This document shows, piece after piece, positions 6,892 through 44,800 of a stretch of 60,000 nucleotides of DNA. The notes beneath the pieces were generated by a model. It was not told where the DNA came from. It did no database searches and saw only the letters and a program-made list of their open reading frames with translations. The stretch comes from Schmidtea polychroa (lineage: Eukaryota), in the NCBI GenBank assembly GCA_044892525.1, contig CM097885.1:34784001-34844000 (forward strand), given 5' to 3'. A program made the translations under genes and the position numbers. How positions within the stretch are numbered: the stretch's first letter is position 1; each line of letters starts with the position of its first letter.

Positions 6892-7091
6892 AAAAATCAA
6901 GACAAGAGAGGACAAGGCAAAGTTTATGCATTTAGTATTGCCAGGCCTAATGAGCAGTGACCAAATATCTGTGCCTGAAAGACACGGTGGATATTTGTTC
7001 GCGTCCACAAGGGTCGTCTGTGCCTCCCCCAAGTGGGGTCAGAAGAACCTGGGCATTATAGCTTTCCGTACGGAACATTACGCCTAGCATG
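6892..7091 (+). ncRNA. Candidate structured RNA (three consecutive long hairpins), family unknown
   Basis: GC-rich island in AT-rich DNA with stems CAAATATC/GATATTTG, AGGGTCGTCTG/CAGAAGAACCT and CTGGGC/GCCTAG. Near-identical copy in unrelated element C. Confidence 0.4.
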
Positions 7092-10000
7092 GGTAGTCAA
7101 CTACCAGCACATTCGAAACGTATAATTTCAAAATACATGCGTCATTGGCACTATAACCAAATTAATTAATGTTTTCACTAACACAAATATATATTTACAG
7201 AGGCCTCCCACCAGTTAGATTACAACCGCCCACCACGACGATCAGCTTGTAAATATATATTAATTAAGGGATAAAAAGGACCCACCCAACCCTATTATAT
7301 TTAATTTACAAATTTTTCTCGCTCTTCTGCTGGTAATCTATCTCAAAATTATCATCTCCATCAGGCCATTTGGAATACATCTTGCAAATTGGACGTATTT
7401 CTTAGTTTCTGATGCGGTGTCAACTATCATTGCTAAAATTTAAAAGCCATTAACTTACAGATGTTATTTATCATTTTATCGTCAGAAATTAAATTCTACC
7501 TGACTATTAGGCAACTGTTATTTGTGGTATACTTTTTCAATGACATTTCCCACCATAAAACACAGATACCTAAATATAATATATTTATTTTAAAGAATTA
7601 ATTCATGTCTTACATTAATAATAATATTCTTCAGGTATGACGAGTACTTTACTTAATTGCTAAAACATCGATTTTTCCCATTTTTCTTGACATTCGTTGA
7701 AAGTTTACATAATTTAAGTAAACATTCATTTTGAAGGACACCCACAATCAGCTAATTCATTTAAAAAATCCAGAACATAACTCCTTTAGTGTTTCACCAT
7801 TTTGTCTGGTTCATCTTCCTCATAATCATATAATTCATGTTTTAATAAGAAATCTCTAAATCTAAAAACTATAACTCCTTTAGTGTTTCACCATTTTGTC
7901 TGGTTCATCTTCTTCATAATCATATAATTCATGTTTTAATAAGAAATCTCTAAATCCAGAACATAAGTCTTTTAGTGTTTCACCATTTTGTCTGACTCAT
8001 CTTCTTCATAATCATATAATTCATTTTCTTCATTACTAAGTAAAATAATTAAAATATTGTAGTAAATTCTTTATTTACTTACTTTATGGATACTAAAACG
8101 AAAGAAATAAAGTTATATCATAATTATATTTAATTAATTTAAATTTAAATAATTTAAATTTAGTATTTAAACATATTTAAACAATTTAGTTATTTAAGCA
8201 TATTTACACATTATTATATAGTATTTATAAAATATTATAATATTATAATTTTATGTATTCTAAATTTATTAATAAATACAGTATAATTTTATATAATATT
8301 ATAATATTATGTACACTTATATATCCTTCATTTAATTTTTTAAATTCAAAAATTTATAATGAAGATTTTTTGAATTAAAAAATATTCTGTTAGTATTTCC
8401 ATGCAGAAAACAACGAATTCAATAATTAAAATCTTAATTTTCATGTTGTTAGGGTTGTGGCCAGAAGTTAATTGCCATCTAATCGTTTGTTCTCAATTTC
8501 GCTCATTTTTGTTCAAAACATTCAGTAGAGTTGTTATCTGGAAAGTTTCTTTTAGCTCAGCTTTCTTTAAACACTCACGGCATTCTTGAATGATGTGACA
8601 CTGGAAATAAATTAACAATGGGTGGTCTTGCATAAATGTTGTTGGTTTGAACTGTTGATTTATTTTAGAAATATGTATATTAAAAACATTTAAGGTATCA
8701 TTCAGTAAAATAATATAGTATTTTTGAGTATTTTTTAGTTGATTTATAAATAACAGTATTTTGATATATCAATAAAGACCATATACTCCTAGTTTATCCG
8801 ACAAAATATTCTGTCCCCCTATGGGTATTGCTAGCAAGGGTACTGGTCACATTCAACATGTCGCAATATTAATCATTTAGAAATTCTTAGGTAATTTAGT
8901 GAGATGATCAGAAATTCGTGAATATTTTAAATGTAACTTTACACTTATGTCGAGCGACTAATTTATTGGTTAACTTTGTAGTCATTTAAAGCAAAAATTA
9001 ATTTATTCATCTAATGTTCGTTACAATAGTTAATAATATGAGAAAACATGGTCATTATTCATTGATAATTTTAAATTCTTTATCATTTGGAGTAAATTTG
9101 TTTGAGGCAAAAATAATTAAAGGAGTCATAATAGAAATATGGTTATCATTTATCCAATTAAGGCGCCTCTTAGTTAGAAATATATATTAAAAAGTAACAA
9201 TTATTTTCTAATTTAATTAGATGATCATTAGACGTAATATATCTTTGCGAGAAATTTAAGATGTTTGAGTAACCAAAACATGGATATTTTGTACGATAAA
9301 TTTATGAATATTGGTTAATTTAGTCATTAAAATAATAATATAATAAGGTAATTTAGGAAAATATCATTTATCCATCCGATAACAATATTCCTTCAATAGA
9401 TATTCAACCGATTTAATTTCTAATTAAAATCATAAATTTCCTTCAAAGATCATTTTTCTTTAGTTGTTTTCCAATTCTTTTAAGTTAATATTTCTCAAGC
9501 TTTGTCAACGATATCCCCAAAATGAATAAAATAACTTCTTAAATAAAAATAATTTAAAGCAATAACCATTGATATCAATTAATTCTAAAGATTTCAAATT
9601 TCTCATTGTCAAAAACAAGTAAATTGATCATTAACCATTAATAAAACCGTGGATAATTAATTAAAACTGGTTCTGAAACATAAATTACTGTGCAACCTCT
9701 AAAACGATATAATTTCACAGGAACTATTCACAGCTGACTATTTCCCTTCAAAATTTGATATTTTACCAATAAGAATATATAAATATTCAAAACATTAACC
9801 GATCCCTCACCAAATATTTCTAGCATTTTAAAAACCCCCTTAAAAATCATATATTACCATCTTAACCTTCACTAAATCCAACCGAATATAATTTCACTCA
9901 CTTGAGCCCTTTAATATATCTTAAAATCCATAGAAATTCTTCAAAATATGAATTTTATTTAATTGTTACAAACATTCTTCCATTGAAATAATTTAGTAGC

Positions 10001-41800: not shown

Positions 41801-44800
41801 TAACATGTTAATTTAGAATTCTTAAATTTAATAAAAGTTATGATTATTAAATATCATTTTAAAAAACATAATTTAAAAACTTTGTAAGTTTAATTTTAAT
41901 CTATTTTAAAAAAAAATTAAGATTTCTAGTTATAAAGTTTCAAAATTTTTGAAAATAATGAGTGGTAAATGAGAATAATTGTCAACTCAAACAATAGAAT
42001 TTAAAACTATACAAAATTGACAAAATTTCGAGTAGAGTGATAGAACAAAAATTTAATTCTTTATAATTATAACTGGTTTTATCAAATGATTTTATAAATT
42101 ATTTGAGGTTAATGACCAATTTAATTTACTTGATTTTAGATGTTTTATAGTGAAATATTTGTAATCTTTAGATAATCAAAGTTAAAGGAGTTAGAATTAT
42201 AGTCATTTAAATGGATTTTAATAAATCGTATTAGTTAGATATTATCTTTTACAGATACTTATCGATAAAATACTAATCTTTAAAGATGGATAGATATTTT
42301 AAGGAAATTTGAGGCTTTTTAGATGATTTTAGTGGAGAATTCACTTGGATATAAAAAGAATGTTAAATATTGTCATATAAATGAATTTACTGGTTTATTA
42401 GATGTTATCATTAGTGGACTTATATCAGTTTCCTTTGGAAATTAATGATAATTATTTAGATATTTTTAGTCTAGATTGACGACTTTGATAATTTGTAATG
42501 AATTTATACTGAATTTTCTGAATAATTTGAGCAATCAGTCAATCAATTTGAAATCATTAAAATTACTTTATTAATAACTTGAATGGTTAGTATTTAAGAT
42601 AAATATTTACTGGATTATCAATGACTATAATTTCAAGTTCTTTTTTATCCATTAATTGACTTTTTATGATATTTATTTACTAGGTTTTGAATAATTTAAA
42701 TGTTTTACATGTTATTTTTACAATAATTTCATCAATTTTTACCTAGTTATTTGGAATCTTACAAGTACTGGTACCTTGAATTCAGTCAATCAGTTGCATT
42801 TTTATTATTATTATTATTATTTTCATTCAATGATTATCATTTTCTTCAATGAAGAACAAGTTTCTTTTAAATCTATTTGTTAACACCTAGTTGTAAGTGC
42901 TTAGTACTTGGTAGTTGTTAGTGAGTAGTTGAAAATACTTGGTGGGTGATTGAATTTAGGTTGGTACTTAGTAGATAGTTGTTAGTACCTATTCGGTAAC
43001 AGGTTGTTGTTATTTGGTAATAGGTTGTTGGTATCTATTTGTTGTTGTTGTTATTGTTGTTGATATCTTGTACTATGTAAACGGTAACTAGTTGTTAGTG
43101 TCTAGTTGTAAGTACTTGGTAGCCATTTGTAATACATAGTTGGTAACATGACATGCTAGGCGTAATGTTCCGTGCGGAGAACTATAATGCCAGGTTCTTC
43201 TGACCCCACTTGGGGGAGGCACAGACGACCCTTGTGGACGCGAACAAATATCCACCATGTCTTTCAGGCACAGATATTTGGTCACTGCTCATTAGGCCTG
43301 GCAATAATAAATGCATAAACTTTGCCTTGTCCTCTCTTGTCTTGATTTTTATAGTTTAAATAATTATTAAAAATATGGTTTACATGTAATAAGTTTTATT
43401 TTATTTACTAACCCTAATAAGACGCATATTTTCATTGCAATATATATATATATATATATATATATATATATATATATATATATATATATATATATATATA
43501 TATATATATATATATATATATATATATATATATATATATATATATATATATATATATATATATATATATATATATATATATATATATATATATATGCTTT
43601 AAGCTCATTTTTCTTTTTTATTTACTCAAAATATATAATTCCTTATAATTCCTTAAAATTTTACCCTTAATTGTTGACGAATTTCTATAGGTTAGGTCAT
43701 ATCACCAATAGATAACGGTCGAATTTCTCATGATTTTAATAAATGTTTAGTTTTAATATGAGAATAGGTTTTCTTAAGTATAGTATTATATTTTTAAATG
43801 TGTATATAAAATTTGGCTGAAAAAAGGTGTTTTGAGTGTGAATAAATAATGATGTCATTTTGTATAGTTTTAAATTCTATTGTTTGAGTTGACAATTATT
43901 CTCATTTACTCATTATTTTCAAAAATTTTGAAACTTTATAACTAGAAATCTTAATTTTTTTTAAAATAGATTAAAATTAAACTTACAAAGTTTTTAAATT
44001 ATGTTTTTTAAAATGATATTTAATAATCATAACTTTTATTAAATTTAAGAATTCTAAATTAACATGTTATTCGAATTAATTATGAATTAGTTGCAGAAAA
44101 TAGTAAGTTATAGTAGTGCATTAACATGTTATCAATTTATAGAATATTGAGAAACATAGTTGAGAATTGAATAAACTTAAAAAAAAATAATATATTTATC
44201 AATAAGATTTATTATTTTCAATAATAATTTTTAAGTTCATAAAACCGAGAGAAATTTTATTTAATAATATTTAATGTGACAAACAGAAATTCGAATTCAT
44301 ATAAATATTTAATACCCTGATATGAAATCTCACATACCCCAAATAAAAAACACTATAATAAAAATATGAACACTTTTGAGTACAGTGCTAACACATATAG
44401 TTAACTAGTCATCGGTATGTTATTACTTTGCTGCAATATTTTTATAATCTTGTTACAATTTGCTTAAATATTTTACAATTGTTGAAATTTTTTTCAAAAT
44501 ATGTTATTACTTTGTTGCAATTTGATGAAAAATGTTAATACTTTGTTGTAATTTAATGAAATGTTTCATAATTTTGTGGTAATTTAGTGTAAATTATTTA
44601 TTAAATTGCTGCCATTCACCGAAATAATTTCCCACTTTATTGCAACTTAATGAATAACTTATAACATTATTGTAATTTATTGAAAGATTTCGTTATGTTG
44701 TTTTGATTTATTGTAATATTTTTATTAAATTTGTAACCATTAACCGAAATATTTTATTATTTTACGATAATTAGTGATTGAATATAGTTTAAAATAGTGT

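Follow-up and report, generated by a model that had tools for sequence, protein, structure and literature searches.

A repeated module in gene-less Polinton derivatives of Schmidtea polychroa carries a 7SL-type Alu head and may descend from a captured 7SL gene

The window, by which we mean the whole 60,000-nucleotide stretch of Schmidtea polychroa contig CM097885.1 that was analysed, contains two gene-less Polinton derivatives, to neither of which a strand is assigned. Element A (5077-16748) is a palindromic, non-autonomous Polinton with AGTAGTATG ends and arms of ~4.8 kb flanking a 1.4-kb centre, and element C (40347-45601) bears AGTAGGTAG at its ends, has arms of 1.7 kb and is flanked by a 6-bp target duplication, AATAAT. 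AG...CT termini together with a 6-bp target duplication are present in element C and in three A-ended and four C-ended elements that were fetched; the window's element A has mirrored flanks in place of the duplication. The ends of element A are also those of a gene-bearing family, P2, in which pPolB, integrase and A32 ATPase are found (Pfam PF03175, PF00665 and PF04665). The first-pass annotation of this DNA held that A and C have different terminal inverted repeats, and the termini agree with it; over their first 700 bp the two elements share nothing but short AT-rich matches.

Both elements carry a GC-rich island, which in the left arm of A lies at 6892-7091 on the minus strand, ends in a T5 tract (6896-6892) and has a GC content of 47.5%, as against 15-35% in most of its surroundings. 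As had been annotated, the island is shared by both arms of A and by C: 6892-7091 and 14101-14300 are identical, although this mirror copy simply reflects the palindromic build of the element, in whose other arm it lies, and the copy in C (43152-43350, minus strand) differs from that in A by 5 substitutions and 1 deletion. The island is not, however, a self-contained unit of ~200 nt, nor is it specially conserved, as had been supposed. The block shared by A, C and the mosaic families described below is a module of ~480 bp, of which the island is the terminus-side 200 bp, and neighbouring parts of the module are conserved at least as well as the island. In the left arm of A the module spans 6833-7312 on the minus strand, and in the right arm 13880-14359 on the plus strand, with an Alu head at 13946-13990 preceding the island. 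The module of element C (43152-43420, the plus strand being the 7SL-sense strand) is truncated to the island and its outer flank, the Alu head having been deleted internally. The sharp edge at 7091 is this deletion in the window's own C copy; the island was found in further C-family elements, and six other C elements (L157, L160, L162 and L167-L169) retain the block to 7312. An initial view of C as a one-off fragment of A was dropped, since other C elements carry the module. In C-type copies a telomere-like sequence, TTAGGGTTAG, is seen at the outer module edge, beyond the T5 tract, where it is variable.

Genome-wide, the module is present in ~1,800 copies, with exact matches numbering 1,778 for the island and 1,733 for the Alu head. 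The two elements had been called unrelated, yet 27 of the 216 fetched copies combine an A upstream flank with a C interior, and mosaic whole elements exist that have C ends, A upstream sequence and C interior. The proposed tie of the island to non-autonomous Polintons is upheld by the same sample, where none of the 216 copies stands free with foreign flanks on both sides. In the case of the gene-bearing families, the module is absent from P2 and P3 (one copy of each examined), both of which have transposed recently and one of which has the same ends as A. No junction of the module to a gene block was seen in 20 further single-arm loci read by eye, the gene blocks there belonging to separate or nested elements. 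Searches of viral contigs returned no match for an island 24-mer or for a degenerate Alu-head pattern, and all 10 of the 10 metagenome matches to a two-motif pattern were rejected as chance.

The Alu head lies 110 bp further in than the island, on the minus strand. At 7246-7202, with G1 at 7246, the sequence is a 7SL/SRP Alu 5' domain with the hallmarks of metazoan SRP RNA, namely helices 2, 3 and 4, a UGUNR U-turn (here UGUAA) and the G4.U23 wobble. The Rfam family RF00017 matches at 7246-7148 with 25.4 bits (E 9e-5), and in sister copies with E values of 4.8e-4 and 5.9e-6, scores of 25-30 bits being set against a gathering score of 70; the match appears only when 7200-7250 is part of a short query, or when the commoner variant is searched. 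Searches of the whole window (E<=1) and of 6800-7200 (E<=10) gave nothing relevant in Rfam. SRP RNA had been excluded by eye in the first-pass annotation; a recognisable SRP Alu head nonetheless adjoins the island, on the other strand and outside the coordinates then considered. The host's own 7SL genes, ~295 in number and arranged in an array of 593-bp tandem units, are detected at 239 bits. Relative to host 7SL, the commonest module head differs at 10 of 45 nucleotides and the window copy at 12, and all 13 pairs of helices 2-4 are retained, including three compensatory double changes in helix 3 (GC to AU, AU to UG and AU to CG). Such pair retention with compensation arose in 12 of 200,000 random placements. 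At every position of UGUAA, no fewer than 130 of 132 de-duplicated copies are unchanged, and two of the three inferred loop 3-loop 4 pairs are kept, C36 being G. A 14-bp, AT-rich stem that is in part a TA repeat encloses the head (7186-7261, minus strand, 7261-7248 with 7199-7186), as judged from sequence and fold. C-to-U changes relate to G-to-A changes as 22:8 by copies and 4:4 by alleles, and the evidence for ongoing selection on the head is thin. The compensatory changes could also predate capture, having arisen in the working 7SL of a donor species.

The likeness of the island to the remainder of host 7SL is weaker. When host nucleotides 101-300 were compared with the island on the Alu strand of four copies under two gap-tolerant schemes, the island score was reached by 0-5 of 300 shuffles and by 0-5 of 700 GC-matched genomic windows, and the opposite strand of the island did no better than the null. 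With two stricter schemes significance is lost for the same four copies (36-214 of 700 windows), and an older copy, L296, scores weakly whichever of the four schemes is used (25-418 of 700). The best local match, to the 3' strand of host helix 6 (7043-7060, minus strand), has 15 of 18 identities and an E value of 0.62, which is not significant alone; in C-type copies GGAG, which would suit the GNAR loop of helix 6 (the SRP19 site), directly precedes this stretch, and a similar hairpin folds locally. With nhmmer the head alone was found against host 7SL, and a covariance model of host nucleotides 101-297 gave no island match at E<=10 in the window and eight other loci. Helix 8 with its SRP54-binding loops and GNRA tetraloop, present in the host, is absent, since the module contains neither GCAG nor a GAAA hairpin that would match, and constrained folding and alignment gave no long helix 5 to connect the 5' part with the 3' part. 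Between head and island lies an AU-rich linker (7092-7201, minus strand) with small hairpins and a T4 tract (7133-7130) and with no similarity to host 7SL nucleotides 46-120. The collinear arrangement suggests that a captured 7SL gene is the likely source of the island, as its decayed S domain and 3' portion, and that the island is not a separate new RNA.

Counted from the Alu head, the unit that spans the island to the T5 tract is 355 nt long, host 7SL being ~300 nt, and no A-tail follows the T5. A tract of T4 or longer occurs before +200 in all 126 copies examined, and T5 in 46, so that most predicted transcripts would end short of the island. In two sequencing runs from a single sample, presumed to be RNA, contigs extend over 6877-7477 and 6919-7477 without joints and show neither strand nor ends; those of a third run, likewise presumed to be RNA, cover nearly everything. 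These contigs are not taken as evidence of expression, because conserved repeat DNA would assemble alike and they carry no information on ends or strand.

The explanation that we put first, tentatively, is that a 7SL gene was captured by the elements, its Alu head being kept and its S domain decaying. After capture, the Alu fold would have been retained and the SRP54-binding arm lost. Transcription by RNA polymerase III would begin at 7246 and end at the T4 or T5 tracts near +115 to +130, or alternatively continue across the island as far as the T5 at +355. The predicted RNA would bind SRP9/14 and be incapable of protein targeting; it would thus act as a decoy on ribosomes of the Alu or BC200 type. 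On this view the island would today be a passenger that owes its spread to Polinton-driven copying and to recombination between arms. A more ambitious form, in which an entire host 7SL gene was taken up by the satellites and remade as an SRP9/14-binding decoy, with the head selected, the SRP54 arm discarded and the island serving as a structured 3' body, is considered rather unlikely; were it true, it would be a parallel in a DNA-virus lineage to Alu, BC200 and VA RNA. Of the Polinton-associated non-coding RNA originally proposed, an RNA-derived unit, tied to Polintons and distinct from a SINE, survives, but its strand, limits and structure do not.

A more modest account, doubtful though weightier than those that follow, is that only the 45-nt Alu head derives from 7SL, perhaps that of another host species, the island being GC-rich arm sequence of unrelated origin and the two travelling as neutral passengers. 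The missing structural match to the S domain, the unmatched linker and the failure under strict scoring all suit this account, as does the behaviour of island variants, which break and keep pairs alike (38:34), with variable sites at 48 of 92 paired and 35 of 59 unpaired positions (p 0.41); the high identity of the module between families fits recent copying and recombination. What speaks for the capture of a whole gene is that the likeness to the host S domain is strand-specific and collinear and falls where such a gene would have it, and that the unit length and T5 end suit a complete 7SL gene.

The first-pass annotation itself suggested that the island could be a plus-strand structured RNA analogous to VA RNA; as a Pol III RNA of its own, we regard this as improbable. 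Degenerate Pol III words are present (6943-7006, plus strand) with VA- or tRNA-like spacing, an A-box-like word at 6943-6954 and a B-box-like word at 6996-7006, and are equalled by 30 of 1000 shuffles; the B-box-like word fits 8 of 10 positions of the consensus, but lacks its key A, which is present in only 2 genome copies. An imperfect 14-bp inverted repeat, overlooked previously, closes the island at a size of ~150 nt (6939-7089, strand-neutral, 6939-6952 with 7076-7089, 12 of 14 pairs Watson-Crick), and is equalled by 7 of 150 shuffles. The three long plus-strand hairpins can indeed be drawn, but their folding is at the level of shuffled sequence (z -0.20 on the plus strand and -1.20 on the minus). 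Hairpin 1 (6957-7002, plus strand), with a perfect 8-bp core, can form from both strands, hairpins 2 and 3 have positions 7049-7050 in common, and G-U pairs, said to favour the plus strand, do so in some stems and favour the minus strand in others. Covariation, proposed earlier as a check, is absent from these hairpins: none of 37 pairs has a double change among 73 haplotypes (alignment A1, 73 of 78, the five omitted being trimmed duplicates in the core), the score is 0.015 against 0.016 for shuffles, and common alleles break the stems in 26 of 73 and 9 of 73 haplotypes. No Rfam family matches the island itself, with hammerhead, HDV and twister giving no match at E<=10, in agreement with the annotation, and ARAGORN found no gene in 8 loci. 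A hammerhead reading was also rejected by eye, CTAATGAG at 6947 being one base off the core and stems II and III unbuildable; one copy, L191, carries the exact core word. The module as a whole may have a VA-RNA-like role.

It is equally improbable that the module is a cis signal at the DNA level, for replication, for packaging, or as a TFIIIC-type boundary shielding termini from silencing. Its place 1.8-2.4 kb from the element end and its orientation are fixed across families with different ends, and indels are few in 6910-7310; for the replication or packaging signal suggested at first, position is the one positive point. Copies with deletions inside the module exist, however, the recently transposed gene-bearing families dispense with it, and the compensated, G.U-containing pairs indicate RNA and not DNA. 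That the island is a small gene, a captured exon or a SINE in the arms is largely refuted and the least probable of all, since the 64-codon open frame (6893-7087, plus strand) is not conserved, 8 of 63 haplotypes having lost one base at 7026-7030, and shows many amino-acid changes and no Pfam or protein relative (a search gave three candidates, and no match among longer proteins), and since, although 7SL-derived heads are typical of SINE1, a target duplication of its own, an A-tail and free-standing copies are all absent.

To our knowledge, the 7SL-derived repeats described so far are all retrotransposed SINEs and come from a small number of vertebrate groups, and we found no paper on a 7SL Alu head in this Polinton module. 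The Alu fold of such SINEs is put down to the way in which they hijack LINE proteins on the ribosome; some other explanation would be needed for a compensated Alu head carried to ~1,800 copies by DNA-replicating Polinton derivatives in an invertebrate. Two questions become testable, whether Polintons use host-derived RNAs to affect translation, and whether 1,700 Alu heads, the modules being six times as numerous as host 7SL genes, compete with those ~295 genes for SRP9/14. Even a silent module would be a clear example of Polinton satellites capturing an ncRNA and shuffling their arms.

Compared with metazoan SRP RNA (RF00017), the module is alike in the helices, U-turn and wobble of its Alu 5' domain, in a near-equal total length ending in a T tract and in a weak collinear similarity in the S-domain region, and unlike it in lacking the long helix 5 and helix 8 with its SRP54 motif, and in having an AU-rich 110-nt linker with T tracts; unlike the host genes in their tandem array, it sits in transposon arms. 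With the 7SL-derived SINEs (Alu, B1, hagfish SINE1-1_EBu and shrew-mole Urop) and BC200 it shares a kept Alu fold, a lost S domain and a very high copy number, but it has no clean central deletion fusing two Alu halves and no A-tail, LINE tail or target duplication of its own, being spread by a DNA transposon. A flatworm-like invertebrate host falls outside the taxa listed for such SINEs (PMC7245038, PMC13023118).

In the case of the Pol III units in Polinton ends and of adenovirus VA RNA (Rfam RF00102), the likeness would lie in a small RNA unit, apparently of host origin, close to the end of an element of the Polinton lineage; the module has no Rfam match to VA, is of 7SL type and not tRNA type, and was found here only in gene-less derivatives, the P2 and P3 copies being without it. 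Finally, elements A and C resemble other non-autonomous Polinton/Maverick elements in their AG...CT termini, 6-bp duplications, long inverted arms, lack of genes and ends shared with a gene-bearing family, and differ from them in carrying what may be a captured host ncRNA module and in the exchange of arms between families with different ends.

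The GC-rich island proposed by the first-pass annotation was confirmed at all three of its positions (6892-7091, its mirror at 14101-14300, and 43152-43350). Elements A and C, which are gene-less, non-autonomous Polintons, had been credited with about six differences between their islands; these are five substitutions and one deleted base, and the mirror copy is identical. Element A (5077-16748) is a palindrome, and the mirror island is therefore its second arm, while element C (40347-45601) has ends unlike those of A and a 6-bp target duplication. Such 6-bp duplications also lie on both sides of fetched A-ended and C-ended elements. 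The window's A has mirrored flanks and no target duplication because the palindrome (1347-20455) runs past its ends into a neighbouring pPolB gene; broken pPolB genes adjoin A outside its limits. Another A-type left end is present at position 42, and a decayed Polinton polymerase (55464-60000), about 68% alike to that at 20095-21639, also lies in an inverted repeat. A motif of ~90 bp, a possible promoter or protein-binding site, recurs on A's arm and ahead of the pPolB upstream frame (4086-4183, 6184-6340, 6717-6803, 8781-8871 and about 10690). Between A and C is an intronless NAA30-like acetyltransferase gene (25790-26602), and for one gene in the window the nearest named relative is from a trematode (66%), suggesting a flatworm host. 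Two GC-rich open frames sharing an EGTWFSP motif (32029-32790 and 37214-37600), and occurring as well in large elements that have inserted into C copies (L158, L166), are probably leaders of giant LTR elements.

Across the 781 Mb of genome searched, an island 19-mer has 1,778 exact matches, and most of the 100 listed form inward-facing pairs 5-8.5 kb apart. Flanks were compared for 216 fetched copies with sufficient flank, counting mirror arms and repeat fetches and with sampling skewed toward chosen patterns and the first 30 Mb of C1. Both flanks were of A type in 146 copies and of C type in 23, an A upstream flank was joined to C interior in 27, flanks were mixed in four, and 16 had one foreign flank. 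None of the 216 had foreign sequence on both sides, tying the copies to Polinton arms. Whole elements have arms of three types. Those with A ends have an A interior as well; those with C ends have a C interior behind either A upstream sequence or a C arm. All three share 6833-7312, located 1.8-2.4 kb from the element terminus, and the edge at 7091 reflects an internal deletion in the window's C copy. Thus, the shared unit is a module of ~480 bp rather than one of ~200 nt, and A and C, described earlier as unrelated, have exchanged arms.

The module is an unusual capture of 7SL by DNA-transposon satellites. SRP RNA had been excluded by eye, yet an Rfam scan of other loci places Metazoa_SRP on the module's minus strand (29.6 bits, E 4.8e-4), with 25.4 bits for the window copy (E 9e-5, 461-nt search) and 29.7 bits for a complete C-type copy, all below the gathering score of 70. 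The island first described is real, although its limits and strand were wrong. The match is to the Alu 5' domain, or head (7246-7202, minus strand), which has 1,733 exact matches in the genome and is enclosed by a 14-bp AT-rich stem. The animal's own 7SL genes, by comparison, are arranged in tandem as 593-bp units (G000:C2:31.93-31.99 Mb, L225-L244; 239 bits); a pattern search counts about 295 of them, one of its 296 matches being a module copy. Relative to these, nucleotides 1-45 of the head preserve 13 of 13 pairs, three of them (5-22, 6-21 and 10-17) through double changes, with one further change to G.U. Random ten-site changes preserved every pair in 1,278 of 200,000 trials, and did so with three double changes in only 12.

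Whether the island likewise descends from 7SL, through the S domain, stands at a little under even odds. From G1 (7246), the minus strand runs 355 nt to a T5 tract at 6896-6892, the left island edge as first drawn, and the island on this strand is collinear with nucleotides 115-296 of host 7SL, the best stretch being the 3' strand of helix 6. Four alignment schemes were applied. With the two gap-tolerant ones, the scores of four copies were reached in 0-5 of 300 dinucleotide shuffles and in 0-5 of 700 genomic windows of matched GC content, and the opposite strand scored no higher than the null; with the two stricter schemes, 36-214 of the 700 windows reached the scores of these copies. A fifth, older copy matched weakly under all four, and 31 further copies, some older, showed no visible drift back toward host 7SL. 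A covariance model of host nucleotides 101-297 found no island match at E<=10 in the window and eight loci, helix 8 motifs are absent from the module, and the AU-rich linker between head and island (7092-7201) shows no similarity to host 7SL (380-494 of 500 shuffles do as well). The origin of the island bears on that of the head: with a decayed S domain beside it, the intact head would imply selection after capture; otherwise, its compensated changes may stem from a foreign donor 7SL, and all may be neutral. An exon-like stretch bounded by AG and GT (7312-7435, minus strand) terminates at the module's inner edge, with no splice joint in contigs of four runs.

Among 73 haplotypes, a double change occurs at none of the 37 pairs in the plus-strand hairpins first proposed, the covariation score equals that of shuffled alignments, and frequent alleles break the stems; an added closing stem gains one double change, in one haplotype. 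No strand is clearly favoured by the changes that keep pairs: 13 alleles do so on the plus strand only, 19 on the minus only and 26 on neither. Folding is at chance level for both island (z -0.20 and -1.20 on the two strands) and module (-0.36 and -1.17), the best 120-nt island window reaching z -2.71 among 56 window-strand tests, and variation is similar at paired and unpaired sites. Copies are young, mostly 92-100% alike, which limits the power of the missing covariation. Diversity (pi) per 50-bp bin (sets of 40 and 20 copies) is 0.015-0.037 in the island and 0.004-0.016 in 7110-7309, with most flank bins at 0.03-0.12 and some at 0.012-0.025; island and linker divergence are equal among 132 de-duplicated copies. 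By itself, the island is probably a passenger.

Beyond the module, head, pairs and mosaic spread, which are observed, we infer a Pol III unit that would point to the element's end. Tracts of T4 or longer precede +200 in all 126 distinct copies checked (T5 in 46), so the main product is predicted to be an Alu-like RNA of 115-130 nt, and the island would be transcribed solely upon read-through. Such an RNA would be bound by SRP9/14 and not by SRP54. According to PMC11581171, Alu RNPs have effects on stress granules and inhibit the initiation of translation, and the predicted RNA could thus have a VA-like role by another route. It is difficult for selection to favour a trans-acting RNA in single copies that lack genes, so any selection was probably exerted in a gene-bearing ancestor; no such element with the module was found. 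Planarian Polintons are piRNA targets (PMC8532177), so present copies may be silent; for Polintons in general, PMC6431247 served as background.

Gene-bearing families P2, whose ends are those of A, and P3, with its own ends, were found nested in A copies, and one examined copy of each lacked both island and head. Gene-bearing Polintons lie repeatedly in or beside A elements (L061-L070, L078-L080, L276, L281, L282, L286, L288, L290), in some cases flanked by a 6-bp duplication of their own, a pattern suggestive of preferred insertion or clustering. Upstream of its major capsid gene, P3 carries four tRNA-like Pol III units spaced about 235 bp (L062:500-1270, minus strand; Rfam tRNA 26.7 bits, E 0.16), two of the four with T tracts and perfect A and B boxes by the Pol III consensus, and one with a Cys-like anticodon. 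These are better VA-RNA candidates than the island. The P3 integrase (L062:2640-4031) has a phospholipase A2-like domain at its N-terminus (PF08398), and that of P2 a weak chromodomain match.

A full-text search, outside subscription papers, Repbase entries and supplements, listed no paper describing a fragment of 7SL inside a Polinton or any other DNA transposon. As far as the available text of PMC7245038 and PMC13023118 goes, 7SL-derived SINEs are listed solely from supraprimates, hagfish and a shrew mole, and have repeatedly lost the S domain while retaining the Alu fold. The module is no member of SINE1, being without free copies, tail or a duplication of its own, and no SRP RNA, as helices 5 and 8 fail. 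The features of BC200 and VA RNA are general background here; if the module works at all, it would be in the manner of the head of Alu and BC200 RNAs.
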